64,000 bases of DNA from Oscillospiraceae bacterium (GCA_017542425.1 JAFXXH010000017.1:2129-66128), one strand, 5' to 3'. Shown: positions 8,249 to 64,000, numbered from the stretch's first letter. Notes: a model not told the origin generated them from the sequence alone. Made by a program: numbers and translations.

Positions 8249-8977
8249 TCATTTTGGACGAGCGCGGAGGACTTGGACCAGGAACAGGGGCAGCTTCATC
8301 ATGCGCCCGATGCGCCTTGGCTCTTTCAGCAGCCGGTAGAGCCACTCCAGGCCCGCTTTCTGCCAGCCCAGAGGGGCCCGGGCGGCGTCCCCGGCCAGCA
8401 CGTCCAGCGCGCCGCCGTTGCCCACCATCAGGCCGACCTGCAGCCGGGGGGCGTTGGCGTGCATCCACTTTTCCTGCTTCGGCGCGCCCAGGCAGACCAG
8501 CAGCAGCTCCGGCGCGGCGGCGTTGATTTGCTCCAGCACCGGGCCGTCGTCGGAAAAGTAGCCGTCGTGGACCCCCGCCAGGCGGAGGCCCGGAAAGCGT
8601 TCACGCAGTTTTTCCCAGGCGCGCTCGGCCACGCCGGGCTTGCTGCCCAGCAGGAACACGCTGCCGCCGCTGCCGTCCAGGGCCTCCAGGAGCCGGGTGG
8701 AGAAGTCGATGCCCGGCACCCGCTCTTTCAGGGGCGTTTTCAGCAGCTTCGCGCCATAGATGACGCCGATGCCGTCCGGGATGGTCAGGGCCGCCCCCGC
8801 CACCGCCGCCGCGGCCTCCGGGTCCTCCCGACAGGCCAGGACGATCTCCGGGTTCGGCGTGACCACATAGGCCGCCCGGCGCTTGCGCATCAGCGTCAAA
8901 GCCCGTTCCACGGCCTCGTCCATGCTGAGGTTGTCGAATGCGACGCCCAAAACGTCGATGCGTGCCCGCTCGCTCAT
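8249..8977 (-). CDS. WecB/TagA/CpsF family glycosyltransferase
   Basis: 242 aa. The N-terminus IDVLGVAFDNLSMDEAV and the central VFLLGSKPGVAERA with GAPKQEKW are characteristic of TagA-type N-acetylmannosaminyltransferases. Confidence 0.88.
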   Translation of the reverse strand: MSERARIDVLGVAFDNLSMDEAVERALTLMRKRRAAYVVTPNPEIVLACREDPEAAAAVAGAALTIPDGIGVIYGAKLLKTPLKERVPGIDFSTRLLEALDGSGGSVFLLGSKPGVAERAWEKLRERFPGLRLAGVHDGYFSDDGPVLEQINAAAPELLLVCLGAPKQEKWMHANAPRLQVGLMVGNGGALDVLAGDAARAPLGWQKAGLEWLYRLLKEPRRIGRMMKLPLFLVQVLRARPK

Positions 8978-9690
8978 AACTGTGAAAAGACCTCCCCGAT
9001 CTTGTCGTGTATCACCAGGTCCGCCCAGGCGTCCGCACTCGTAGCGTCCCGGTTCACCAGCACCAGCTTCTGGCCCCGGTAATAGCGGATCAGCCCCGCC
9101 GCCGGGTAGACCACCAGGCTGGTGCCGCCGATGATGAGGACATCCGCCTGGCGGATGTAGCGGACCGCCCGGCTGATGGCATCTTCGTCCAGCGCCTCCT
9201 CATACAGTACGATGTCGGGGCGGATGACGCCGCCGCAGTCGCAGCGGGGCACGCCCTCCCCCTCCTGGATGCGCTCCGCGGGCCAGGGTTTCCGACAGCG
9301 GGAACAGTAGGCCCGCAGCAGACTGCCGTGCAGTTCGATGACGTTCCGGCTGCCTGCGGCCTGGTGGAGCCCGTCGATGTTCTGGGTGATGACGGCCCGG
9401 AGCTTGCCCTGGGCCTCCCACTCCGCCAGCTTCCGGTGGGCGGCGTTGGGCTGCGCCCCACGGAGGCAGAGCTTGTCGTGGTGGAAGCGGAAGTACTCCT
9501 CCGGATTGGCCTGGAAGAAGCTGTGGCTCAGGATCTGTTCCGGGGGGTATTTGTAATGCTGGCTGTATAGTCCGTCCACGCTGCGGAAGTCGGGGATGCC
9601 GCTCTCCGTGCTGACGCCCGCGCCGCCAAAGAATACGATGTTGTCCGATCCGGCGATCCAATCCCGGAGCCGGGCAATGCGCTCGTCCAT
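8974..9690 (-). CDS. cobB: NAD-dependent protein deacylase (Sir2 family)
   Basis: FFGGAGVSTESGIPDFRS, QNIDGLH and a Zn ribbon CSRC...CDCGG. The start was set at MDERIARL, which has a GGAGGG RBS. Confidence 0.92.
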   Translation of the reverse strand: MDERIARLRDWIAGSDNIVFFGGAGVSTESGIPDFRSVDGLYSQHYKYPPEQILSHSFFQANPEEYFRFHHDKLCLRGAQPNAAHRKLAEWEAQGKLRAVITQNIDGLHQAAGSRNVIELHGSLLRAYCSRCRKPWPAERIQEGEGVPRCDCGGVIRPDIVLYEEALDEDAISRAVRYIRQADVLIIGGTSLVVYPAAGLIRYYRGQKLVLVNRDATSADAWADLVIHDKIGEVFSQL

Positions 9691-9900
9691 GCCGATCCCT
9701 CCACCCAGTCTGGTTTTCCATATCTTAACACAGCCCTCGCTAAAAAGCAAGAAATGCGCGCCACTCCGCTCTTGATAAATTTAGACACTTTTGCTATAAT
9801 GTCAGTAATCTGTTGACGGATGTCGAAACAAATACCCAAAGACCCAGCGGGCCCGCCGGAAGCCGCCCCGTGCCCGATGATCTGAAAAAGGAGGTTCGTC

Positions 9901-11253
9901 ATGAAACGATGCAGCAAATGCGGCAAGACCTATGAGGACTGGAGCATTTTCTGCCGGGACTGCGGCCAGCTCCTGAGCCCCGAGGGGGAAGCCGCGCCGA
10001 CGCCGGCCCAGGCCGAGAGCGTGCTGCGTGCGCAGCCGGAAGAGGAGACCCTGCTCCAGGCCGCAGCGCCCCCGCCGCCGGAGCCGGAGGCCCCCGCCGC
10101 GCCGACGCCGCCCCAGGCGGATGCGCCGCAGACGCCCGCCGTGCCCGGCCGGATGCAGCAGCCCGGCGGAGCGCCCCAGCCGGAAGCGCCGCAGACGCCC
10201 GCCGCCGTGCCGCCGCCGCAGCAGCCGAGCCAAGGCCCGTTCCCCTATTCCGGCCCCTATGACCCCATCCCGGATATGTTCAAGGAAGCGCCGCCGGAGC
10301 CAAAGGTGAAAAAGCCCCGGCCCCTGCGGGACGGCTCTCTGCCCAAACTGGGCTTCGGACGTGGGCTTGCCTATGTGCTGGCCGGAATTCTGCTCTTTCT
10401 GCTGCTGGCCGCGCCGCTGGGCGTTTACATTGTCCGGGAGAGCAGCACGGAAGCGGGCCTGAACACCCTGCTGGCCGACGTGCGCCTCTCCCAGATCCCC
10501 GCCGGCGACGTGATCCGCGGGGCGGACCCCCAGCAGACCGTTTCCGGCTGGCTGGGCGACAAGCTCTTTGCCCTGAGCAAAAAACTGGACTTCACCACCG
10601 AGGCGGTGGCGGACTTTCTGGACCGCAGCAGCCTGAAGGACTCCGCTGTCCGGGACCTGGCCGCCGTACTCCGCGACTGGTTCGCGGGCAGCGGGGAGCA
10701 CGCCCTGGGCAAGGCGGAATACCGGGCCATGATCGTGGAGAACCAGGGGCTGTTTGAGGACGTGTTCCACAAGGAGCTGCCCACGGAGCTGACTCCCATG
10801 CTGGCCGACCTGCTGGTCTCCAGCGGTCTGCCCACCCTGCCCACCCAGGCGGAACTGCGCCAGGCGAATCCCACCCTGAGCACGGCGCTGCAATACGGCT
10901 TCTCCTGGGTCACCGTGATCGTCCTGCTGCTGCTGGCGGTGCTGGTCTTCCTGCTGCTGTGCAAGCTGGCCCGGGGCGTCCTGCGGCCCCTGCGCAGCCT
11001 GGGGATTCTGCTCTGCATTCTGGGCGGCCTGACCGCGCTGGCGGCGGGCTTTGCCAAGCTGCTGCCGGACCTCTGGAGCGGCCTTTTGCAGGCGGGCTAT
11101 GTGCCCGGCAAGGCCAGCGCCGCCCTGCTGGGCAGCCAGCTCCCCATCTTCCTGGGGATGCTGGGGTTGGGCGTCCTGCTCCTGGTGCTGGTCCGCCTGA
11201 TCCGCGCCGGACAGGCCCGGCGTGCGGCAAAACGACTGGCCAAAGCGGGCTGA
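9901..11253 (+). CDS. zinc-ribbon, proline-rich, multi-pass membrane protein of unknown function
   Basis: MKRCSKCGKTYEDWSIFCRDCG zinc ribbon, then a ~120-aa Pro/Ala/Gln-rich linker, then a TM helix, a soluble domain and 3-4 C-terminal TM helices. Confidence 0.8.
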   Translation: MKRCSKCGKTYEDWSIFCRDCGQLLSPEGEAAPTPAQAESVLRAQPEEETLLQAAAPPPPEPEAPAAPTPPQADAPQTPAVPGRMQQPGGAPQPEAPQTPAAVPPPQQPSQGPFPYSGPYDPIPDMFKEAPPEPKVKKPRPLRDGSLPKLGFGRGLAYVLAGILLFLLLAAPLGVYIVRESSTEAGLNTLLADVRLSQIPAGDVIRGADPQQTVSGWLGDKLFALSKKLDFTTEAVADFLDRSSLKDSAVRDLAAVLRDWFAGSGEHALGKAEYRAMIVENQGLFEDVFHKELPTELTPMLADLLVSSGLPTLPTQAELRQANPTLSTALQYGFSWVTVIVLLLLAVLVFLLLCKLARGVLRPLRSLGILLCILGGLTALAAGFAKLLPDLWSGLLQAGYVPGKASAALLGSQLPIFLGMLGLGVLLLVLVRLIRAGQARRAAKRLAKAG

Positions 11254-54672: not shown

Positions 54673-57021
54673 TTACTTCACGGTCAGCTTCTGGGCCTCC
54701 TTGTAGGGCTTGAAGAGCTGCCACAGGAGCAGACCCAGCGCAATCAGCGCCAGAATCAGGCCGACGACGTTCACGCCGCCCACGAACACCCGGCCGATCT
54801 GCCAGACCAGGAAGGCGATCACCCAGGCAAAGCCGCACTGGTAGCCGATGGCGAACCAGGTCCACTTGCGGCTGTTCATCTCCCGCCTGATCGCGCCGAT
54901 GGCCGCGAAACAGGGGGCGCAGAGCAGGTTGAAAATCAGGAAGGCATAGGCGGCAAGTCTGCCGTGGCCGCCGGAGATGGCGTTGAAGTCCTCCGCCACG
55001 TTCTCCCAGATCTGGTCGCCGTTTTCCTCCAGCTCCTCCAGGATGGGTTCGCCGGTCTCCTCGTCAAAGAGCGGTTCGCCGGTCTCCTCGTCCACGGCCT
55101 GCTCGGCCCTGGCGTCGAAGTTGTACATGATTCCGAAGTTGGCCACGACCTCCTCCTTTGCCACCAGGCCGGTGACCGTGGCGGCAGTGGGCTTCCAGTC
55201 GCCGAAGCCCAGGGGCTTGAAGACGATGGAGACGGGCTGGGCCACGCGGGCCAGGATGGAATCGTCCATCGGCTCCACCTCGTCCTCGGAGATGCCCATA
55301 CGCTCGGCCACGATGGCCACATATTCGTCGGTGACCAGGCTGTCATCCTCATAGAGCTCGTCCACCATGCCGAATCTGCCGTTGACGGAGCCGAAGCTGG
55401 TCAGGAACCAGATCACAATGGAGGAGACCACGATGACGGTCCCGGCGCGCTTGATAAAGCTCCAGCCGCGCTCCCAGGTGCCGCGCAGGACGTTGCCCCA
55501 GGCGGGGGCGTGGTAGGCGGGCAGCTCCATGACGAAGGGGGCGGGGTCCCCGGCAAAGCGCTTCGTCTTCTTCAGCATGATACCGGAGATCACAATGGCA
55601 GCCACGCCGATGAAGTAGGCGGAGGTGGCGACCAGGGTGCTGCCGCCGAACAGCGCGCCCGCGATCAGGCCGACGATGGGCATTTTCGCCCCGCAGGGCA
55701 TGAAGGTGGTGGTCATGATGGTCATGCGGCGGTCACGCTCGTTTTCAATCGTGCGGGAGGCCATGACGCCGGGGATGCCGCAGCCGGTACCCACCAGCAT
55801 GGGGATGAAGCTCTTGCCGCTCAGGCCGAAGCGGCGGAAGATGCGGTCCATGATGAAGGCGATGCGCGCCATGTAGCCGCAGTCCTCCAGCAGGCAAAGC
55901 ATCAGGAACAGCACCAGCATCTGGGGCACGAAGCCCAACACCGCGCCCACGCCGGCCAGGATGCCGTCGGAGATCAGACCCACCAGCCAGGGGGCGGCGT
56001 TCCAGCTCTCCAGGATGGCGCGGGAGCCGTCGGTCAGCCAGGCCCCGCCCAGCACGTCGTTGGCCCAGTCGGTCAGGAAGGTGCCGATGGAAATGCCGCC
56101 GTCGGCGATGGAGGTGCCCATGGACAGGGCGTAGACCAGGAACATGACTCCGATGAAAATCGGCAGCGCCAGGATGCGGTTGGTGACGATCTTGTCGATC
56201 CGGTCGGAGGTACTCTGTTTGGTCCTGTTCTTTTTCTGATAGCACCCGCGCATCAGGCCCGCGATGTAGATGTAGCGCTCGTTGGTAATGATGCTCTCCG
56301 CGTCGTCGTCCAGCTCCCGCTCCGCCGCGGCGATATCCTGTTCGATATGTGCTTTGATCCCGTCGCTGAGGGCCAGCTTGCTCTGGACCTTTTCATCCCG
56401 CTCGAAGAGCTTGACGGCATACCAGCGCTGGCGCTCCTCCGGCATGTTGTGGACCGTAATCTCCTCGATGTGGGCCAGGGCGTGCTCCACCACGCCGGAA
56501 AAGCTGTGCTGGGGCACGGTCCTCGGCCCCTGGGCGGCCTCCACGCAGGCGCGGACCGCCGCGTCGATCCCCTCGCCCTTGAGCGCGGAGATCTCAACAA
56601 TCCGGCAACCCAGGGCGCGGCCCAGTTCCTCCGTGTGGATGGTGTCGCCGGACTTGCGCACCAGGTCCATCATGTTCAGGGCAATGACCACGGGGATGCC
56701 GATCTCCACCAGTTGGGTGGTCAGATAGAGGTTGCGCTCCAGATTCGTGGCGTCGACGATGTTCAGCACCACGTCGGGCTGTTCGTCGATCAGATAGTTC
56801 CGGGCCACGACCTCCTCCAGCGTGTAAGGGGACAGAGAGTAGATGCCGGGTAGGTCCGTGACGGTCACGTCCTTCTGGCCGCGCACGCGGCCCTCCTTCT
56901 TCTCCACCGTCACGCCGGGCCAGTTGCCCACATACTGCTGGGTCCCGGTCAGCGCGTTGAACAGCGTCGTCTTGCCGCAGTTGGGGTTGCCGGCAAGGGC
57001 GATGCGAATTCCAGTTTTCAT
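54673..57021 (-). CDS. feoB: ferrous iron transporter FeoB
   Basis: IALAGNPNCGKTTLFNALTG G1 motif, DLPGIYSL, NMMD, and a large gate-motif-containing polytopic membrane domain. Confidence 0.97.
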   Translation of the reverse strand: MKTGIRIALAGNPNCGKTTLFNALTGTQQYVGNWPGVTVEKKEGRVRGQKDVTVTDLPGIYSLSPYTLEEVVARNYLIDEQPDVVLNIVDATNLERNLYLTTQLVEIGIPVVIALNMMDLVRKSGDTIHTEELGRALGCRIVEISALKGEGIDAAVRACVEAAQGPRTVPQHSFSGVVEHALAHIEEITVHNMPEERQRWYAVKLFERDEKVQSKLALSDGIKAHIEQDIAAAERELDDDAESIITNERYIYIAGLMRGCYQKKNRTKQSTSDRIDKIVTNRILALPIFIGVMFLVYALSMGTSIADGGISIGTFLTDWANDVLGGAWLTDGSRAILESWNAAPWLVGLISDGILAGVGAVLGFVPQMLVLFLMLCLLEDCGYMARIAFIMDRIFRRFGLSGKSFIPMLVGTGCGIPGVMASRTIENERDRRMTIMTTTFMPCGAKMPIVGLIAGALFGGSTLVATSAYFIGVAAIVISGIMLKKTKRFAGDPAPFVMELPAYHAPAWGNVLRGTWERGWSFIKRAGTVIVVSSIVIWFLTSFGSVNGRFGMVDELYEDDSLVTDEYVAIVAERMGISEDEVEPMDDSILARVAQPVSIVFKPLGFGDWKPTAATVTGLVAKEEVVANFGIMYNFDARAEQAVDEETGEPLFDEETGEPILEELEENGDQIWENVAEDFNAISGGHGRLAAYAFLIFNLLCAPCFAAIGAIRREMNSRKWTWFAIGYQCGFAWVIAFLVWQIGRVFVGGVNVVGLILALIALGLLLWQLFKPYKEAQKLTVK

Positions 57022-57254
57022 ATGCCGCTCCTTTCCTCCACTTCGATCATTTCCGCGTCGGCCTTGCGGATGGACAGCTCATAGCCCCGCACGTTCACCT
57101 CCACCGGGTCGCCCAGCGGGGCCAGCTTGCGGACGTAGATCTCTACGCCCTTCGTAACGCCCATGTCCATGATCCGCCGCTTGACCGCGCCCGCGCCGTG
57201 CAGCTTCACGACCCGGACGGTCTCGCCGACTTTCGCGTCTCTGAGTGTTTTCAT
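57018..57254 (-). CDS. feoA: FeoA domain protein
   Basis: LRDAKVGETVRVVKLHGAGAVKRRIMDMGVTKGVEIYVRKLAPLGDPVEV is an SH3-like FeoA domain. AAAGGAG RBS. It overlaps feoB by 4 nt. Confidence 0.9.
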   Translation of the reverse strand: MKTLRDAKVGETVRVVKLHGAGAVKRRIMDMGVTKGVEIYVRKLAPLGDPVEVNVRGYELSIRKADAEMIEVEERSGI

Positions 57255-57284
57255 CCTCATCGCTCCTTTTCGATTCAAATTGGA

Positions 57285-57497
57285 TCAGACCATGATCTTC
57301 CCGGCCATTTCGCGGCTGAGGGCCACGCGGGACTCCTTGACCTTGACGATCAGGTTCCCGCCGATGGTATTCAGCACCGTGACGGTCCCGCCGACGACAA
57401 AGCCCATGTCCTCCAGGTGCTTTTTCAGCTCCGGCGTCCCGCCCAGGCGCAGGATGACGGCTTCCTCCCCCGCCCCCGACAGATACAGCGGCATCAT
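57285..57497 (-). CDS. feoA: FeoA domain protein (second copy)
   Basis: MMPLYLSGAGEEAVILRLGGTPELKKHLEDMGFVVGGTVTVLNTIGGNLIVKVKESRVAL, with a [14 protein letters not shown]. Confidence 0.88.
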   Translation of the reverse strand: MMPLYLSGAGEEAVILRLGGTPELKKHLEDMGFVVGGTVTVLNTIGGNLIVKVKESRVALSREMAGKIMV

Positions 57498-57562
57498 CGC
57501 TTTTCCCCCCTCCTTGCACCGTGCCACAGAATTAAATGAAACTAACTTGCGATTCGGCAAAA

Positions 57563-57580
57563 GGTTAGGTTCTCCTAACC
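57563..57580. promoter_or_regulatory. DtxR-type iron-box-like operator in the feoA 5' region
   Basis: Perfect inverted repeat GGTTAGG-TTCT-CCTAACC. It resembles the DtxR/IdeR consensus TTAGGTTAGCCTAACCTAA and starts 8 nt downstream of the -10. Confidence 0.65.
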
Positions 57581-57616: not shown

Positions 57617-57692
57617 GAGCGAACTTCCCTGCACTTTGATTTTTCTTGCTTTTTGCATATTTTTATGGTAATCTTTTCAGCAGGTGATGAAA

Positions 57693-58061
57693 ATGACGAT
57701 CCATGAATCCGCAGAAAACTATCTGGAAGCCATGCTGATGCTCAAGGAGGAGCGGGGCTACATCCGCTCCATCGACGTGGCGGAAAAGCTGGGCGTAACC
57801 AAGCCCAGCGTCAGCTACGCAACCAAACGCCTGCGGGAGAGCGGCTATATCACGCTGGACCCGGCGGGGATGATCGTGCTGCTCCCTCCGGGGCTGGAGA
57901 TCGCGGAGCGGATTTACGAGCGCCACAAGCTCCTGACCGAACTGTTCATCGGCCTGGGCGTCAACCCGGAGACCGCCCGGCAGGACGCCTGCAAGATCGA
58001 ACACGACCTGAGCGTGGAGACCTTCGAGGCCATTCGCAGACATGCCCAAATGTACCGCTGA
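57693..58061 (+). CDS. DtxR/MntR family metal-dependent transcriptional repressor (no SH3-like C-domain)
   Basis: SAENYLEAMLMLKEERGYIRSIDVAEKLGVTKPSVSYATKRLRESGYI is a winged HTH. ERHKLLTELF...DACKIEHDLS is the dimerisation/metal-site region. The start was set at the ATG 5 nt after AGGTGA. Confidence 0.9.
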   Translation: MTIHESAENYLEAMLMLKEERGYIRSIDVAEKLGVTKPSVSYATKRLRESGYITLDPAGMIVLLPPGLEIAERIYERHKLLTELFIGLGVNPETARQDACKIEHDLSVETFEAIRRHAQMYR

Positions 58062-58163: not shown

Positions 58164-58192
58164 TATCATCAGCAATTAGATAAGCCTAACTT
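58164..58192 (+). promoter_or_regulatory. -10 element (TATCAT) plus an iron-box-like operator upstream of the HMA gene
   Basis: TATCAT at 58164-58169, then AATTAGATAAGCCTAACTT at 58174-58192 (imperfect TTAG..CTAA palindrome). The geometry matches that at feoA. Confidence 0.5.
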
Positions 58193-58222
58193 CTGGAAAC
58201 GAGCTTTGGAAAGGTGAGACAC

Positions 58223-58474
58223 ATGATCAAGACCACAGTGAAAATCGACGGCATGATGTGCCCCATGTGCGAGGCGCATATCAGCGAGGCGATCCGAAAG
58301 GCGATCCCCTCCGCCAGGCAAGTCAGCGCCAACCGGCGCAAGGGGGAGGCGGTGTTCCTGACGGAACAGGCCGTGGACGGAGCGCTGCTGCGACAGGCCA
58401 TTGACGCCACAGGCTACCGCTGCCTGGGCGTGGAATCGGCGCCCCACGAGAAGAAGCGCTGGTTTCAAAAATAA
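58223..58474 (+). CDS. heavy-metal-associated (HMA, CopZ-like) domain protein
   Basis: MIKTTVKIDGMMCPMCEAHISEAI carries the GMxCxxC metal-binding motif. It is about 83 aa with a ferredoxin-like beta-alpha-beta-beta-alpha-beta pattern. Confidence 0.88.
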   Translation: MIKTTVKIDGMMCPMCEAHISEAIRKAIPSARQVSANRRKGEAVFLTEQAVDGALLRQAIDATGYRCLGVESAPHEKKRWFQK

Positions 58475-58483
58475 ACACGAAGG

Positions 58484-58527
58484 CCGCACAATTCTGACTG
58501 CGCGATGGGCATGTCAGAACTGTGCGG
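58484..58527. terminator. hairpin between convergent genes (possible bidirectional terminator)
   Basis: CCGCACAATTCTGAC-14 nt-GTCAGAACTGTGCGG. The U-tracts are weak on both strands. Confidence 0.5.
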
Positions 58528-58544: not shown

Positions 58545-60104
58545 TTATCTCCTGGCCTGGCTCAAAGCGGCGCGGACGGCGGCGCGCAGGCCCTCGGAAG
58601 AATAGGTCGCGCCGGAAACGCCGTCCACATTCGGCGACTGCGCGGACAGCATGGCGGCGATCATCCGCGCACCGTCTGCGCCGGGGTCGAAGTAATCCAC
58701 GTCATCCTTGAACGCAGTGATGCGGATGTCCACAATGCGGTCGTCCCGGATGGTCACGGATACGGCCACGTCTCCGGCCGTACCCAGGTTTCCGACGCCG
58801 GATCCGCTGTAGGTCCCGTCCTGATAGACCCGGACAGGCGTGGGCTCGGGGGTGGGCACCGGAGTCGGCTCCGGCGTAGGTTCGGGCGTAGGTTCCGGAG
58901 TCGGCTCCGGGGTGGGTTCCGGGGTGGGCTGCTGCGTCGGTTCCGGCGTCGGTTCCGGCGTCGGGGTGGCTTGCGCCGTGGGCTGCGGCGTCGGTTCCGG
59001 CGTCGGCTTCGGTGCCGGTTTCGCCGTGGGTTCGGGCGCGGCTGCGGTCTCCGGTTCCGGCGTCGGCGCTGACGTGGCCGTGGGTTCCGGTTCCGGCTGC
59101 GCTTCTCCCTTTGCTTCCGGGTCCGGGGATGGGCTTGAGACGGACGCGGTGGGCGTCACTTCCGGCGTCAAGTCGGGCTCCGGCGTGGACGACGCGTCCG
59201 TGCTTTCCGGCGCGGGCGGTGGTGACGGCAGAGACTCCGTTGCTTCCGAGGCCTCGGACGCCGAGAGCGGTTCCGTGGAGACGGCCGCTGCGGAAGCCCC
59301 TTCCCCGTCCTGCGCCTCTCGCGCTGCGGAAACCGCCAGCGTCAATGCCGCAGCGAGCAGCAGCGCAAAGAAAAGGGCGACCAGCTGGCGGCGCGCCAGC
59401 CCCGTTTCGCTCTGCCGACGGCGGGCCAGCGCTTTCAGAATCCGGCAGGCGGCGTAAGCGACGAAGATCGCGGTGTAGACGAACACGGTCAGTCCGTAAC
59501 CGAGACGGCCCCGCAGCGCGTTGGGGATGGTCAGCAGCAGGATGTGGAGGCAAAGCAGGGCATAGAACAGATAGGCCCAGCGCTGCAGGCGTTTCCAGGC
59601 TTTTGGCCGCATCTTTTTTCGGACAGCAGGGAAGCTGGTGATCCACAGCGGCAGCATCACCAGATCCATGACGACGGAGCAGAGGGCCGCCAGCAGCGTC
59701 GCTGTGGGCAGGCTGGCGGCGTCCGTAAACAGCAGGACGAAATAGGTCTTGCCGTACGCCACGTTGTGGGCAAGGGTGAAAATCCCGGCCAGAATGGACA
59801 GAGGCCCGCGGACGGGCATCAGCGTTCGCGCTCCCCTGGAACCGTTGGGGAAGGCTCCGGCCACCATCACCAGCACAAACAGCGCACCCGCCAGCGCGCC
59901 CCGGGCGAAAATGGGCCAGATCCAGCTGTTGACAAAGGCCGGGAAGCGGACCCCGGCAAAGGCGCAGACCACGACGGCAAGGGACAGCAGCGCGGCACAG
60001 AGATAAAACGGCCCCGGCGCGGTCCGCAGCTGCTTGCCCAGCAGTAGCACCAGCAGCAGCGCCAGGGCGAGAGAGATCAGAAAAACCAAAGACGGCACCT
60101 CCAT
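58545..60104 (-). CDS. ferric-reductase-like transmembrane domain fused via a Pro/Thr/Glu linker to an extracytosolic FMN_bind domain
   Basis: The N-terminal ~230 aa form six TM helices with His in TM segments (FTLAHNVAYG, ALLCLHILLL), as in YedZ/MsrQ/FRD proteins. A ~170-aa (PEPT)n-rich linker follows. The C-terminus GTYSGSGVG...VDGVSGATYSSEG is an FMN_bind domain with the canonical flavinylation site. The start may instead be the TTG at 60089, which follows GGAGG. Confidence 0.88.
   Translation of the reverse strand: MEVPSLVFLISLALALLLVLLLGKQLRTAPGPFYLCAALLSLAVVVCAFAGVRFPAFVNSWIWPIFARGALAGALFVLVMVAGAFPNGSRGARTLMPVRGPLSILAGIFTLAHNVAYGKTYFVLLFTDAASLPTATLLAALCSVVMDLVMLPLWITSFPAVRKKMRPKAWKRLQRWAYLFYALLCLHILLLTIPNALRGRLGYGLTVFVYTAIFVAYAACRILKALARRRQSETGLARRQLVALFFALLLAAALTLAVSAAREAQDGEGASAAAVSTEPLSASEASEATESLPSPPPAPESTDASSTPEPDLTPEVTPTASVSSPSPDPEAKGEAQPEPEPTATSAPTPEPETAAAPEPTAKPAPKPTPEPTPQPTAQATPTPEPTPEPTQQPTPEPTPEPTPEPTPEPTPEPTPVPTPEPTPVRVYQDGTYSGSGVGNLGTAGDVAVSVTIRDDRIVDIRITAFKDDVDYFDPGADGARMIAAMLSAQSPNVDGVSGATYSSEGLRAAVRAALSQARR
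58832..59260 (-). repeat. in-frame low-complexity tandem repeat encoding the (PEPT)n / Pro-Thr-Glu-Ala linker
   Basis: Plus strand shows reiterated GGTTCCGGCGTCGG / GGCTCCGG units. Translated on the minus strand this gives PTPEPTPEPTPEPTPEPTPEPTPVPTPEPTP and degenerate copies. Confidence 0.9.
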
Positions 60105-60112
60105 GTTCCAGG

Positions 60113-60153
60113 ATAAAAAACACCGGGGACGCCCGACGGGCGGACGACCCCGG
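60113..60153 (-). terminator. rho-independent terminator after the SLH surface-protein gene
   Basis: Minus strand reads CCGGGGTCGTCCGCCCGTCGGGCGTCCCCGG followed by TGTTTTTTAT. Confidence 0.8.
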
Positions 60154-60176
60154 CCAAAAAGGAGAAGTGGGAAAAC

Positions 60177-62255
60177 TCAGCTTTGTGGATCAGACCGCGC
60201 CGTTGCATAGAGCAGGGACACGATCTCGGCGCGGGTGTAGGGCGTCTCGGCCCGGAAGCTGCTTCCGGCTTCGATCAGGCCCTTCTCCGCCGCCCAGGAG
60301 GCGGCGTCACGGTACCAGGCCTCGGGCTTCACATCGTCAAAGGCCTTTTGCGCGGCGGGGGCGGGCCGTCCTTCGGCTTTCCAGAGGACGCCGATGATCT
60401 GTGCGCGGTCCACGGTCTGCATGGGGCTGAAGCGGTCCGCGCCCGTGCCGTCGATGATGCCGTTTTCAACCGCCCAGAGGACCGCTTTACAATACCAGTC
60501 GTCCTCCCGGATGTCCGTGAAGGGGGTTTCGACGGATTCAGGCTGCGGCTGTCCGGCGCGTTTCCAGAGGAAGGTGACCAGAGTCGCCCGGTTTACGGTC
60601 AGTTCCGGGGAGAAGGTCCCGTTTCCGGTTCCGCTGGTGACGCGGTTTTTCCTGGCCCAGATCAGCGCCTCGGCATAGTCGGCGTCCTTCGGCACATCGT
60701 AGTATCCGGTGGCCCCCAGGTCCGCGATGGCGATCTGCACCGGGAAATCCAGCACGGCAGACGGGGTGTAGTAGCGGATGTTGGTAATCGTTTTTCCGTC
60801 GATGGCCGCCAGCGGCTCGTCCAGGTTCCAACCCAGCTCCGTGGCCCGCCAGATGTTCGTCACATGGCCCATGCCGTATTTCGCGCCGTCCTCGGTGGTC
60901 AGCACCACAGCGCTGACGGCGTCGCCTTTGGCGATCCCCTCCGTGCCTTCCAGTACCATTTCAATGGAAGTGTGCCGTCCGTTGTAGGTCACGGTGGCGC
61001 TGACACCTTCCACCGTTGCGGCGCGCCCGCCCACTGCGGAGAAGCGGAAGCCGCCGTCCTCCGCCACGGAGAGCGTCTTGTACTTTGCGGGCTTCTCCGA
61101 CAGCGCATACCAGGCATGGTCCGGGGCTTCAAACAGAGAATCCCTGCCCGCATAGGTCGCGGTATTCGTCTGGCCGCGGGCGCTGGTGGTGATCTCCACG
61201 CTGCGTGCGTCGGTGACCTCCAGCGCAGCATCCAGCATATCCAGATCCGGGACGAACACAGGATAGCTGACGCCGTCTACGCCGTCGCCCTCCGCGCTGA
61301 CATGATAGGAGCCGGAGGCCAGGCCTCCGTTGCTCCGTTTGTTTTTGGTGGCCGCGCTGACCGCGTCCGGCGCGTCCGCTTCGCCCAACTCTGCGGCGTA
61401 GAATTCGGCGTAGGGGATGTTCATTTGGACATAGCCTGCCTTACCGATGGTCAACTGAACCGGATAGTCCAGAATGGCGTCACGGGTATAGTATCGAATG
61501 TTGGTGAGCGTCTTTCCGGCGAGCCCTGCGGCCCCTTCGTCCAGGTTCCAGCCCAGCTGCGTCCCGCGCCAGATGTTATAAACGTGGCGCAGCCCGTATT
61601 GGCTGCCGTCGGAAGCCGTCAGCACCACGCCGCTGACAACGGTATCCGCCGCGATGGCGGCTGTGTTTTCCAGAACGATTTCGATGTCTGTATGCCGTCC
61701 GCCCATCGTCAGCGTGGGGACGACGCCCTCCTGTGTGGAAGCCGCGCCGCGCACAGCGGAAAAGCGCAGCGCGCCGTTCGTGACGGAGAGTTCTTTGTAA
61801 CAGGCGGGCCTTTCTTTCAACACATAGTAGGAGTAGCTCGGAGCCTCAAACAACGCATCCGCGCCCTCATAGACGGTGGTTCTCTCCTGACCCCGGTTCA
61901 CGACGGTGATCTCCACGCGGGCCGTATCGTCCAGGCGGTTCAGCCCCGCCAGCGCCGCAGAGTCCTTGACAAGCACGGGATAGATGACGCCGCTGATGTC
62001 ACTGCCGTCAGCATTGACGTGGTAGGAGCCGCCGGCCAGCGTACCCGTCCTGGGCTTATTCAGCGTAGAGGAACTTACGGCGTCCACGGCCTTGTCCGTT
62101 TCGCCCAGTTCCGATGCATAAAAGTCGGCGTAGGGGATGTTCATCAGGACATAGGTCTCTTCCGCCGCCAGCGCCGCAGACGGCAGCGCCCCGATCAGCG
62201 TCAGCAGGCAGAGCAGCAGTCCCAGCGTTTGTCTGAGCTTTTTCACATTCATCAT
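60177..62255 (-). CDS. cell-wall-anchored (3x SLH) surface protein with two tandem copies of an unassigned ~240-aa domain
   Basis: Signal peptide LGLLLCLLTLIGALPSAALA. Copy A spans aa ~38-278 and copy B aa ~279-519, sharing MNIPYA(D/E)FYA.ELGE, DAVS..T, SGSYHV, RHT.IE.VLE, NIWR.T.LGWNLDE and TNIRYYT. Three SLH modules lie at aa ~522-690. The start was set at ATGATG after GAGGTG. Confidence 0.88.
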   Translation of the reverse strand: MMNVKKLRQTLGLLLCLLTLIGALPSAALAAEETYVLMNIPYADFYASELGETDKAVDAVSSSTLNKPRTGTLAGGSYHVNADGSDISGVIYPVLVKDSAALAGLNRLDDTARVEITVVNRGQERTTVYEGADALFEAPSYSYYVLKERPACYKELSVTNGALRFSAVRGAASTQEGVVPTLTMGGRHTDIEIVLENTAAIAADTVVSGVVLTASDGSQYGLRHVYNIWRGTQLGWNLDEGAAGLAGKTLTNIRYYTRDAILDYPVQLTIGKAGYVQMNIPYAEFYAAELGEADAPDAVSAATKNKRSNGGLASGSYHVSAEGDGVDGVSYPVFVPDLDMLDAALEVTDARSVEITTSARGQTNTATYAGRDSLFEAPDHAWYALSEKPAKYKTLSVAEDGGFRFSAVGGRAATVEGVSATVTYNGRHTSIEMVLEGTEGIAKGDAVSAVVLTTEDGAKYGMGHVTNIWRATELGWNLDEPLAAIDGKTITNIRYYTPSAVLDFPVQIAIADLGATGYYDVPKDADYAEALIWARKNRVTSGTGNGTFSPELTVNRATLVTFLWKRAGQPQPESVETPFTDIREDDWYCKAVLWAVENGIIDGTGADRFSPMQTVDRAQIIGVLWKAEGRPAPAAQKAFDDVKPEAWYRDAASWAAEKGLIEAGSSFRAETPYTRAEIVSLLYATARSDPQS
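60711..62156 (-). repeat. internal tandem duplication (two ~720-nt domain-coding copies)
   Basis: The protein-level repeat described above gives copy A at about 61434-62156 and copy B at about 60711-61433. The copies have diverged (roughly half the residues identical by eye), so the duplication is not recent. Confidence 0.8.
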
Positions 62256-62287
62256 AACACCTCTCATTCTGGATTTGTTATCAGCCG

Positions 62288-62311
62288 CTAACGTTAGTTA
62301 GACTAATCTAA
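62288..62311. promoter_or_regulatory. iron-box-like operator(s) in the 5' region of the SLH surface-protein gene
   Basis: CTAACGTTAG is a perfect 10-bp palindrome. It overlaps TTAGTTAGACTAATCTAA, which is close to the DtxR consensus half-sites. The site lies about 16 nt downstream of the -10. Confidence 0.6.
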
Positions 62312-62328: not shown

Positions 62329-62357
62329 AGTATAACAGCAACGCGCAGAAATGTCAA
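62329..62357 (-). promoter_or_regulatory. sigma-A promoter of the SLH surface-protein gene
   Basis: Minus strand reads TTGACA-17 nt-TATACT. Confidence 0.6.
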
Positions 62358-62373: not shown

Positions 62374-62403
62374 TTGACAAACAAAACACCGCGGATTTAC
62401 AAT
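62374..62403 (+). promoter_or_regulatory. sigma-A promoter of apbE
   Basis: TTGACA-18 nt-TACAAT, arranged back-to-back with the divergent promoter (the -35 boxes are 16 nt apart). Confidence 0.6.
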
Positions 62404-62416
62404 AAATCATACGGGA

Positions 62417-62434
62417 AGTTAGTTTTTTCTAACT
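62417..62434. promoter_or_regulatory. iron-box-like operator upstream of apbE
   Basis: Perfect inverted repeat AGTTAG-TTTTTT-CTAACT between the -10 and the RBS. Confidence 0.6.
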
Positions 62435-62456
62435 CTTGAAAAAAGGAGGGGATGGA

Positions 62457-63491
62457 ATGCGACGGGCCGCCTGCCTTCTCTGTCTCAGCTTTCTGCTGCT
62501 GAGCGGCTGCGGCGGGAACTCCGCTTCCACCGCGCCCACGGAGCGGGAGCGCAGTTTCTTCGCCATGGATACCTATATGAGCATTCGCGCCTTTGGGGCG
62601 GAGGAAGCGCTGCTGGAGCGTGCGGAGGCCGCAGTCACGGATCTGGAGCGGCGCATCTCCGTCACGGACCCGGACAGCCAGATCGCCGCGCTGAACCGCA
62701 ACGGGACGGGCACGCTGGACGCGGAGACGGCGGAGCTGCTGCGCCGGGGTCTCGCGCTCTGCGCGGAGACGGGCGGGGCGCTTGATCTCAGCGTCTATCC
62801 GGTGCTGCGGGCCTGGGGCTTCACCACAGGCGACTACCGCGTCCCCGCCCCGTCGGAGCTGGAAGCGCTGCTGACGCTGGTGGACCATCGCCGGGTGAAG
62901 CTGAACGAGGCCGGAACCGTGTCGCTTGACCCGGGGATGCAGCTCGACCTGGGCAGCGTGGCCAAGGGGTATGTGGGAGACAAGCTCTGCGCCCTGCTGC
63001 GCACCGGCGGCGTGAATAGCGCCCTGTTGGATCTGGGCGGGAACGTACAGGCGCTGGGCGGCAAGCCGGACGGAAGCGCCTGGCGCGTGGGCATCCGGGA
63101 CCCCCAGGGCGCGGGGCTGCTGGGCGTGGTCTCCGTCCGGGACTGTGCGGTGGTCACATCCGGCGGCTATGAGCGCTATTTCCTGGACGCGGACGGGACG
63201 GTCTATTGGCACATTCTGGACCCCGCCGACGGGATGCCCGCGAAAAACGGCCTGATCTCCGTCACCGTCGTGGGGACGGAGGGCCTTCTCTGCGACGCGC
63301 TCTCCACCGCGCTGTTCGTCATGGGCACGGAGCGGGCGGCGGACTACTGGCGCGCCCACGGGGACTTTGAACTGGCGCTGGTCACGGAGGACGGCAGACT
63401 GCTGCTGACGCCTGGCTTGGCGGAGGGTTTCACCCCGGCGGAGGGCCTGAACTATCGGATCGAGACGCTGGAGCGGGAGGGCGCGGCATGA
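62457..63491 (+). CDS. apbE: FAD:protein FMN transferase (ApbE family) lipoprotein
   Basis: Lipobox LLLSGCGG. ApbE motifs FAMDTY, DLGSVAKGY, TSGGYERYF, HILDP and [21 protein letters not shown] lies before the ATG at 62457; the track starts at an upstream TTG. Confidence 0.93.
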   Translation: MRRAACLLCLSFLLLSGCGGNSASTAPTERERSFFAMDTYMSIRAFGAEEALLERAEAAVTDLERRISVTDPDSQIAALNRNGTGTLDAETAELLRRGLALCAETGGALDLSVYPVLRAWGFTTGDYRVPAPSELEALLTLVDHRRVKLNEAGTVSLDPGMQLDLGSVAKGYVGDKLCALLRTGGVNSALLDLGGNVQALGGKPDGSAWRVGIRDPQGAGLLGVVSVRDCAVVTSGGYERYFLDADGTVYWHILDPADGMPAKNGLISVTVVGTEGLLCDALSTALFVMGTERAADYWRAHGDFELALVTEDGRLLLTPGLAEGFTPAEGLNYRIETLEREGAA

Positions 63492-64000
63492 CGAAGCGCA
63501 TCACCCACGCGGCGCTGCTCACGGCCCTGGCGCTGATCATCTTCGTGCTGGAGGCGCAGATCCCGCCGCCCGTCCCGATCCCCGGCCTCAAGCTGGGTCT
63601 GGCCAACATCATCACCGTGTACGCCATGTTCCGGCTTGGGCCAAAGGACACGCTGGCGATCCTGCTCTCGCGCATCTTCCTGGGCAGCGTGTTCGCGGGC
63701 GCTGTCAGCGCCATGCTGTTCTCTCTGGCGGGCGGGCTGCTGTGCTATCTGCTGATGCTGCCGCTGCGGCGGCTTCTGAGCCTGCGTCAGATCTGGGTCT
63801 GCGGCGTGTTGGGCGCGGTGGCGCACAACCTGGGCCAGACCGCCGCCGCGATTTTGATCTACCGCACGTTTGCCGTCGCCTTTTATCTCCCGGTGCTGCT
63901 GCTGAGCGCCGTCGTCACCGGGACCCTCACGGGGCTGAGCGCACAGTACGTCGTGCGCCGCATGGAGCAAAGGGAGCAGAACAGGTCGGACATGGAAAAA
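63488..64000 (+). CDS. Gx transporter family membrane protein (formerly 'heptaprenyl diphosphate synthase component I'-like); the 3' end is beyond the window
   Basis: Own translation: MTKRITHAALLTALALIIFVLEAQIPPPVPIPGLKLGLANIITVYAMF...GAVAHNLGQTAAA. The ATG overlaps the apbE stop (ATGA). There is no in-frame stop before 64000. Confidence 0.8.
   Translation, partial: MTKRITHAALLTALALIIFVLEAQIPPPVPIPGLKLGLANIITVYAMFRLGPKDTLAILLSRIFLGSVFAGAVSAMLFSLAGGLLCYLLMLPLRRLLSLRQIWVCGVLGAVAHNLGQTAAAILIYRTFAVAFYLPVLLLSAVVTGTLTGLSAQYVVRRMEQREQNRSDMEK

Follow-up and report, generated by a model that had tools for sequence, protein, structure and literature searches.

What does a bacterium do with a membrane protein that carries a flavin-binding domain on a long proline-rich tether, encoded directly behind a cell-wall protein and close to the genes of a ferrous iron transporter? 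The question is raised by a locus towards one end of a 64,000-nucleotide stretch of DNA from Oscillospiraceae bacterium (GCA_017542425.1 JAFXXH010000017.1:2129-66128), referred to throughout as the window. The gene under study (the target gene) lies on the minus strand and encodes a ferric-reductase-like (FRD-like) membrane domain, a tether rich in Pro, Thr, Glu and Ala, and an FMN_bind domain. An earlier interpretation of this DNA, here called the sequence-only reading, had proposed this architecture and a linker that lets an external flavin domain reach a wall-anchored partner; it was essentially right. Our analysis established the domain architecture, the predicted topology, sequence conservation, the linkage of genes, the enrichment of an operator and a covariation of linker length with S-layer homology (SLH) repeats. 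Taken as a whole, they lead us to suggest metal-regulated extracytoplasmic ferric reduction feeding the iron transporter FeoB, a model to which we assign a probability of roughly 60%. Our confidence is high for architecture and topology and moderate for the function in iron reduction. What looks new is the context, namely the partner module, the operator and the relation between tether and SLH repeats, rather than the gene itself.

The target gene and its parts are as follows:

58545-60089, minus strand: coding sequence of the FRD-like/tether/FMN_bind protein, with a TTG start, 514 amino acids (aa) plus stop codon; start assigned from homologue N-termini and the ribosome-binding site
59322-60089, minus strand: eight-helix membrane domain, aa 1-256, delimited by the AlphaFold2 model, hydropathy, the positive-inside rule and PF01794 matches of homologues
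59766-59768, minus strand: codon of His108 (in LAHNV), proposed axial haem ligand, in AlphaFold2 helix 85-122
59544-59546, minus strand: codon of His182 (in LCLHIL), proposed second axial haem ligand, in AlphaFold2 helix 162-192
58827-59321, minus strand: 165-aa acidic Pro/Thr/Glu/Ala tether, between the last transmembrane helix and the FMN_bind fold
58548-58826, minus strand: FMN_bind domain of the FMN-bind1 type, from Pfam, PDB 8p2b and Foldseek 3O6U matches
58605-58625, minus strand: DGVSGAT flavinylation motif with Thr495, the predicted FMN (flavin mononucleotide) attachment site

The membrane domain was modelled by AlphaFold2 with eight helices (residues 2-23, 26-45, 51-77, 85-122, 129-150, 162-192, 198-225 and 231-270) at a predicted local distance difference test score (pLDDT) above 90, in agreement with hydropathy. 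Helices 2-7 form a core resembling FRD and MsrQ, to which helices 1 and 8 are additional. The sequence-only reading had counted six helices with His residues in the third and fifth. The count did not survive, as it omitted the N-terminal helix and the eighth, which decides the topology; the His placement stands if helices are counted within the six-helix FRD core, where helices 4 and 6 of the protein become core helices 3 and 5.

Searching with the membrane domain as query yielded 78 proteins, mostly of PF01794 (Ferric_reduct) plus PF04205 (FMN_bind) architecture, which carry the JGI name 'YedYZ heme-binding membrane subunit / FMN-binding'. We aligned a family of 67 homologues. PF01794 was matched by 37 of the 67, which are 38-57% identical to the window protein (E 1e-40 to 1e-85); the best of these matches had E=7e-9, and two proteins (P0018 and P0004) scored above the gathering cut-off of the model. 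Weak NCBIfam matches of the window protein itself were to the MamZ C-terminal region (E=4e-7) and MsrQ (E=0.022). A PDB sequence search with the membrane domain gave no match, and the family profile matched FMN_bind domains only. The assignment to the FRD type thus gains its support through the homologues and through His108 and His182, both invariant in the 67 sequences. These are the only two His columns conserved in the membrane domain of the alignment, with no second conserved pair, so the family has one predicted bis-His haem site rather than two. We infer that the domain is a single-haem-b transmembrane electron conduit of the MsrQ/ferric-reductase-like kind.

The direction in which the protein faces was predicted from charge and hydrophobicity. 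Across the 67 homologues, Lys plus Arg numbered 18.1 in the predicted cytoplasmic loops versus 2.8 in the outer loops, as expected from the positive-inside rule, and the eighth helix was hydrophobic in every member (67/67). Together, these two features place the tether and the FMN_bind domain outside the cytoplasm, the topology that the sequence-only reading had expected, having named a cytoplasmic FMN_bind domain among the findings that would refute it.

The FMN_bind domain was found in all 67 homologues and, in the window protein, gave a Pfam match (PF04205) at aa 441-515 with E=3.2e-11. Among solved FMN-bind1 structures, 8p2b was matched by the family profile (E=2.5e-16) and 3O6U by Foldseek with a probability of 1.0. 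The motif DGVSGAT is encoded exactly where it had been reported and conforms to the canonical ApbE motif, D-x-x-[S/T]-G-A-[S/T] (PMC12052999). With this motif, a Thr495 that is invariant in the 67 homologues and an extracytoplasmic ApbE encoded alongside, the domain is predicted to be flavinylated, in line with its earlier description as flavinylatable.

The genes for this modification lie on the opposite strand:

62457-63491, plus strand: apbE flavin transferase, a lipoprotein (MRRAACLLCLSFLLLSGC), Pfam E=3.7e-82; the open reading frame (ORF) opens at 62436
63488-64000, plus strand: EetB-like (PF07456) ECF-S subunit for export of FAD (flavin adenine dinucleotide), Pfam E=1.1e-38; runs off the end of the window

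The apbE gene, whose product carries the lipoprotein signal LLSGC, starts 190 nt upstream of the start codon of the wall-protein gene described below and 2.3 kb from the target gene. The eetB-like gene overlaps the apbE stop codon by 4 nt. Members of the EetB family act as the FAD-export subunit that supplies ApbE, as shown in Listeria (PMC9973259), and the pair is a flavinylation toolkit beside the operon. Two minus-strand ORFs in this region (62397-63359 and 63452-63970) were rejected as shadow ORFs; neither has a Pfam match, and the true genes are the plus-strand apbE and eetB-like genes. Shadow ORFs of this sort are typical of this sequence, with its 65.5% G+C.

Directly upstream of the target gene, on the same strand, lies a gene for a secreted wall protein, which we call the partner:

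60177-62267, minus strand: partner gene, 696 aa, with a signal peptide, two modules of ~240 aa and three SLH repeats
61446-62162, minus strand: partner module 1 (aa 36-274), hidden Markov model (HMM) E=2e-106; AlphaFold2 pLDDT 88, predicted template modelling score 0.87; motif DAVSSST at 62064-62084, candidate acceptor Thr68 (precursor numbering)
60723-61439, minus strand: partner module 2 (aa 277-515), HMM E=5e-97; motif DAVSAAT at 61347-61367, candidate acceptor Thr307 (precursor numbering)
60180-60722, minus strand: SLH wall-anchoring region of the partner, Pfam SLH E=9e-24, three stretches

To define the neighbourhood of the family, loci were collected from species-representative genomes (designated L001 and so on), of which 70 were usable for partner linkage and 71 were non-redundant for operator counts. 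In 43 of the 70 usable loci, the gene immediately ahead, on the same strand, encoded a homologue of the partner, and an ApbE gene often directly followed the FRD-FMN_bind gene. The three genes co-occur in gut and rumen Clostridia; cultured carriers include Acutalibacter intestini, Ruminiclostridium sufflavum, Pseudobutyrivibrio sp. 49 and Butyrivibrio sp. INlla21. By this conserved gene order, the upstream SLH protein is a predicted conserved partner of the membrane protein.

The two partner modules are beta-rich and 56% identical to each other, and their HMM detects the module in ~55 of 75 upstream ORFs. No Pfam model matched any of the 94 members scanned (94/94 without a match). No PDB sequence match was found, and a fold search with the confident model gave a best Foldseek E of 0.07 and template modelling (TM) scores of at most 0.27. 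A profile search of 1.84 billion representative proteins returned 1,205 members (942 at E<=1e-10), many with 2-9 copies of the module per protein. The module is sometimes fused to SLH, FIVAR, fn3 or FMN_bind domains, and it carries an invariant His (H49 of the module).

Close to the module's N-terminus, in a loop modelled with little confidence, 93 of the 94 members carry the motif D-x-x-[ST]-S-A-T, mostly as DAVTSAT and with an invariant final Thr. Replacement of Gly by Ala in the motif of a model substrate retained ~50% of flavinylation (PMC12052999). In two loci (L006 and L042) a single protein combines the module with three canonical SGAT sites. Flavinylation of the module is plausible on these motif grounds. 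That the module is a divergent FMN_bind domain was considered and rejected: a first hhalign match was traced to extra FMN_bind domains in a few members of the alignment, and with trimmed profiles only 17 columns around the motif aligned, at a probability of 12%.

In the 98.5%-identical metagenomic contig L001, the partner was called at 8666-9913 with a single module (the window's module 2) plus SLH, and it lacks a signal peptide. Either the strains differ in module copy number, or the two 56%-identical modules were collapsed during assembly.

The tether itself is extreme in composition: 30% Pro, 84% Pro, Thr, Glu, Ala or Ser, a net charge of -24 and 11 exact PEPT units. It is disordered in the AlphaFold2 model (pLDDT ~45-55). 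The ~170-aa (PEPT)n linker of the sequence-only reading, said to be encoded by a degenerate tandem repeat, was recovered as 165 aa encoded by degenerate 12/36/60-nt tandem repeats with their core at 58837-59066. Part of it (aa 372-425) gave a weak NCBIfam match to TonB (E=0.05). Within the family, linkers range from 9 to 188 aa (median ~35) and vary in composition between clades, and they are always acidic and low in Lys and Arg. Since linkers of 9 aa upward occur, a long tether is unnecessary for the basic step from haem to FMN. The window linker was the longest among the first 67 homologues; in the wider set that includes the genome loci, L032 exceeds it with 188 aa.

Linker length followed the anchoring of the partner. 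In the 8 loci with an SLH partner, linkers measured 112-188 aa (median 124), versus a median of 35 aa in the 37 loci without SLH (Mann-Whitney p=9e-5, uncorrected for phylogeny). Some lineages in the SLH group are distant, with target proteins that share only 34-54% identity with that of the window. The idea that the linker reaches towards an SLH-anchored partner, put forward from the window sequence, thereby gains its first comparative support: all eight SLH loci have linkers of at least 112 aa, and the tether may let the flavin reach a wall-anchored acceptor.

The repeat that encodes the tether is unstable. The strain represented by L001 differs from the window by an in-frame 66-nt indel, a deletion within the repeat (compared with window 58917-58985). 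In the same gene (L001 10001-11479) a CAG-to-TAG change creates a stop codon in the linker, at window position 58985. Stop and deletion together split the gene into a membrane ORF of 368 aa and an FMN_bind ORF of 104 aa, which may reflect either a genuine pseudogene or a misassembled repeat.

A connection to metal supply emerged from the promoter regions of the cluster, in which a short palindromic site recurs beside metal-related genes:

62298-62311: TTAG-N6-CTAA operator, 18 nt downstream of the -10 element of the partner promoter
62419-62432: TTAG-N6-CTAA operator, 16 nt downstream of the -10 element of the apbE promoter (promoter 62374-62403)
58176-58189: TTAG-N6-CTAA operator, 25 nt upstream of the start codon of the HMA gene
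57565-57578: TTAG-N6-CTAA operator, intergenic, between feoA and the repressor gene
57684-58061, plus strand: two-domain DtxR/MntR-family metal-dependent repressor, 125 aa, Pfam PF01325 and PF02742, PDB alignments
54673-57560, minus strand: feoA-feoA-feoB ferrous iron transporter genes, from ORFs and the Pfam annotation of identical L001 genes
58214-58474, plus strand: gene of a small HMA-domain protein, 86 aa, with the metal site MCPMCEAH

These four sites are the only ones in the 64-kb window, versus 0.06 expected, and all lie in promoter regions of this cluster. Of the 71 loci, 48 had at least one site in the 200 nt ahead of the partner ORF, comprising 43 of 49 loci with a module-type partner and 5 of 22 with other upstream ORFs. 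The density upstream of the partner was 4.59 per kb versus 0.066 per kb elsewhere (~70-fold), and shuffled sequences gave 0.34 loci. The same site is found ahead of feoA in L002 and L061 and in the gap between FTR1/P19 and apbE in L003, and in L002, L014 and L061 the gene next upstream of the partner is DtxR-like. A scan with the 19-bp IdeR/DtxR consensus had given only 13-14 of 19 matches; TTAG-N6-CTAA was the unit that recurred instead, and it was then tested formally. The 19-bp IdeR/DtxR box, TTAGGTTAGCCTAACCTAA, is made up of two overlapping TTAG-N6-CTAA units. The site is probably the operator of a DtxR-family repressor.

Which metal would be sensed is less clear from the repressor than from the genes it may control. 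Its predicted ligands (N12, E15, H81, C103, E106 and H107) are mixed. Cys103 aligns with Cys102 of DtxR, which corresponds to Glu99 of MntR, a position at which Cys (DtxR) versus Glu (MntR) is linked to metal selectivity. The genes that share the operator, Feo and FTR1/P19, point to iron. The HMA gene is an unexpected member of this apparently iron-related regulon; HMA homologues also occur near Feo or partner genes in L002, L014, L025, L061 and L072.

Expression of the target gene probably depends on an unusual arrangement of signals in and around the gap behind the partner gene:

60098-60102, minus strand: GGAGG ribosome-binding site, 8 nt upstream of the TTG at 60089; same layout of site and start in homologues
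60113-60153, minus strand: intrinsic terminator between partner and target genes, stem-loop 60123-60153, T6 at 60115-60120, free energy -25.9 kcal/mol
62329-62357, minus strand: sigma-70-like promoter of the partner-target operon, TTGACA, 17 nt, TATACT, with a TG element; 11/12 matches
58484-58527: hairpin between the convergent target and HMA genes, a 15-bp inverted repeat, free energy -35.9 kcal/mol in context

The ORF at 58545-60104 (minus strand, 519 aa up to an ATG) is present as first described, and so is the oddity noted with it: the ATG at 60104 has no ribosome-binding site, and a TTG at 60089 is preceded by GGAGG. In homologues the N-terminus is always M-[IVT]-FLISL at the position of the window's TTG, where they begin with ATG behind a GGAGG-type site, and on this basis the true start is almost certainly the TTG at 60089 rather than the ATG. 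The strong terminator that had been noticed upstream is also real. Together with the ribosome-binding site it takes up the 87-nt gap between the two genes, and no internal promoter was predicted in 60090-60400, so the target gene is predicted to depend on read-through. Terminator-like hairpins lie in the corresponding gap in 11 of 43 loci (the window, L001, L003, L004, L015, L017, L018, L044, L064, L066 and L074), versus 0.3 in shuffled sequences. This recurrence suggests conserved partial termination between the two cistrons, which would yield more wall protein than membrane protein. The hairpin at 58484-58527 is probably a bidirectional terminator shared with the HMA gene.

From these elements we propose the following mechanism. 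The target gene would be the second gene of an operon whose first gene encodes the secreted, SLH-anchored two-module protein, and the membrane protein would be translated from read-through transcripts, with the TTG at 60089 as its start codon and presumably at a lower level than the wall protein. Electrons would pass from a cytoplasmic donor to haem b, held by His108 and His182, on to the tethered FMN and from there to the wall-anchored partner. The partner, probably flavinylated itself, would reduce extracellular Fe(III) to Fe(II) for uptake by FeoB. Thr495 would be flavinylated covalently by the neighbouring lipoprotein ApbE, with FAD exported by the EetB-like subunit. The adjacent DtxR/MntR-family regulator would repress the system when metal, probably iron, is plentiful; since the operator is common to the operon, apbE, feoAAB and the HMA gene, repression by this regulator is the most likely arrangement. 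Haem and flavin content, the direction of electron flow, the terminal acceptor, the identity and metal of the regulator and its binding to the operator are the parts that the model supplies.

Several observations weigh against this model. No cytoplasmic electron donor emerged from the analysis. The window protein itself falls below the threshold for PF01794, with no match at E<=1 in Pfam or at E<=0.01 in the family scan, and the Foldseek matches of the whole model to STEAP2, STEAP1 and NOX5-TM are weak (probability ~0.6, E 0.7-2.2, target TM-score 0.25-0.47). The partner motif is non-canonical, with Ser or Ala in place of Gly and, in module 1, also Ser in place of the conserved Ala, and it sits on a loop modelled with low confidence. 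The association of linker length with SLH is uncorrected for shared ancestry, and long linkers also occur without SLH in L031, L033, L041 and L014. Of ~80 loci, no more than a handful have a Feo or FTR1 gene within 10 kb, and the link to iron therefore rests mainly on the operator. Lastly, the repressor is nearest to Mn-sensing MntR structures (E. coli MntR 2h09, 7e-18; B. subtilis MntR, 7e-14; DtxR, 1e-6), which leaves room for Mn instead of Fe as the signal.

The scarcity of nearby iron transporters bears on a respiratory or redox-balancing function, in which extracellular electron transfer would pass surplus reductant to Fe(III) minerals, humics, oxygen or other oxidants. Most loci indeed lack an iron transporter within 10 kb, and in five (L031, L032, L033, L041 and L080) the membrane protein is paired not with the module but with a large protein carrying one to three canonical D-x-[VI]-S-G-A-T sites. 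Multi-flavinylated wall-binding proteins of this kind have been proposed as long-distance electron conduits (PMC8238504). However, four of these five multi-SGAT loci have no TTAG-N6-CTAA site (L080 has one), and they may form a separate subclass that is not regulated by iron. The window and 43 of 49 module-type loci do carry the DtxR-type operator, which also stands before feoA and FTR1/P19, and control by a metal-sensing repressor is more in keeping with acquisition than with respiration. We therefore regard a respiratory role as unlikely for the window system.

The MntR-like repressor raises a different option, namely that the flavin chain serves Mn, Cu or oxidative-stress physiology by reducing another metal or by detoxifying extracellular oxidants. 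The best PDB matches of the regulator are MntR proteins, an HMA gene under the same operator belongs to the cluster, and FRD-family enzymes also reduce Cu(II). Set against this are the TTAG/CTAA half-sites of the operator, which are those of the IdeR/DtxR box, the Cys at the position of DtxR Cys102, and the operator-sharing genes, which are Feo and FTR1/P19; no Mn or Cu transporter was seen. Such a function appears distinctly improbable.

With regard to the tether, its length could be without function, a neutral expansion of a slippery repeat in a protein for which a spacer of ~10 aa or more suffices. The 9-188 aa range, the clade-variable composition and the 66-nt indel in a 98.5%-identical strain are all what such drift would produce, but drift leaves unexplained why none of the 8 SLH-partner loci, which include lineages only 34-54% identical to the window in the target protein, has a linker shorter than 112 aa when the median elsewhere is 35 aa, and why linkers are always acidic with few Lys or Arg. 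We give this explanation little weight. Least of all do we expect a classical MsrQ role, with electrons passed to an MsrP-like extracytoplasmic repair enzyme or other oxidoreductase and the FMN_bind domain a mere adaptor: the homology to MsrQ/YedZ (the NCBIfam MsrQ and MamZ C-terminal domain matches and the JGI names) speaks for it, but the inspected neighbourhoods contain no molybdoenzyme or MsrP-like gene, the conserved neighbour is an unannotated module protein, and a single conserved His pair stands against the two haem-binding sites predicted for MsrQ-like proteins (PMC8238504).

How does extracytoplasmic ferric reduction at this locus relate to known systems? 'MsrQ-like' flavinylation clusters have been defined as PF01794 plus FMN_bind plus ApbE, and assimilatory iron reduction was proposed for them from an association with VIT1 (Méheust et al., 2021, eLife, PMC8238504). 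A fusion of MsrQ with FMN-Bind1, carrying two conserved His residues, has also been modelled with AlphaFold (Huang et al., 2024, mSystems, PMC11334425, Fig. 5B). The window gene fits the operational definition, with ApbE 2.3 kb away, FMN_bind fused and PF01794 recognised via the family, and thus belongs to the published class rather than to a new kind. The two have in common a PF01794-type cytochrome, FMN_bind and ApbE in one cluster and the proposed assimilatory iron reduction. They differ in that the described clusters are mostly actinobacterial, whereas the window family is clostridial, with eight helices including a dedicated eighth and no cytoplasmic domain. The window family further adds a single His pair, a tether of 9-188 aa, the unannotated partner module and a DtxR-type operator shared with Feo or FTR1. 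In the inspected neighbourhoods no MsrP-like molybdoenzyme, NAD-binding domain or VIT1 was found. A search of the literature outside subscription journals returned nothing on the clostridial cassette beyond the general MsrQ-like class, and no description of the operator, the partner module or the linker–SLH relation.

With E. coli MsrQ (YedZ), NOX and STEAP proteins, the window family shares the six-helix core, axial His residues on core helices 3 and 5 and the predicted transfer of electrons across the membrane. It has one His pair, and its acceptor is a fused domain predicted to be flavinylated, not MsrP, oxygen or a metal directly. STEAP proteins bind a single haem, and the lone His pair of the window family resembles theirs; STEAP and the yeast FRE enzymes reduce Fe(III) for uptake. 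The extracellular electron transfer system of Listeria (Ndh2, EetA/B, PplA and FmnB/ApbE) likewise uses an extracytoplasmic, ApbE-flavinylated FMN_bind domain as its last membrane-proximal carrier, has an EetB-type exporter beside apbE and shows ferric reductase activity, which is predicted for the window system. In the window, however, the membrane step would be taken by a haem protein rather than by Ndh2, quinone and EetA, the FMN_bind domain is fused through a tether instead of being a lipoprotein, and regulation appears to involve a metal sensor.

The P19/FTR1-associated FMN-binding proteins are a further parallel, as flavinylated proteins co-located with iron transporters in Gram-positives (Méheust et al., 2021); according to their description, these clusters have no transmembrane core component for electron transfer. 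In L003, a member of the window family adjoins FTR1/P19/FtrD and shares the operator, and the family could be the missing transmembrane component. For the tether, the EP/KP repeats of TonB and the PT linkers of cellulases are comparable as low-complexity, Pro-rich, envelope-spanning segments. This is an analogy of composition and not homology, and the cargo of the window tether differs in being a redox cofactor domain.

The most far-reaching form of our proposal joins several of these points: the partner module would be an unrecognised class of ApbE-flavinylated domain, which together with the conduit would carry out metal-repressed reductive iron uptake, with tether length tuned to anchoring depth. 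So joined, the system would be a pathway of gut and rumen Clostridia and, by analogy, the bacterial counterpart of the eukaryotic Fre/STEAP systems. We put this joint claim forward tentatively, as possible rather than probable.

Strict anaerobes of the gut mostly import iron as Fe(II) through Feo, and how Fe(II) is supplied from ferric sources is poorly understood. The locus suggests a complete chain, from repressor and operator through ApbE/EetB and a haem conduit with its tethered flavin to a wall acceptor and FeoB, and so suggests that gut Clostridia use such a conduit to reduce iron for uptake. It also brings to light a large, unannotated family of extracellular domains with a flavinylation-like site; if these are flavinylated, the list of ApbE substrates grows. 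With natural tethers from 9 to 188 aa long, the membrane protein family would offer a model for how a redox cofactor is carried across the Gram-positive wall.

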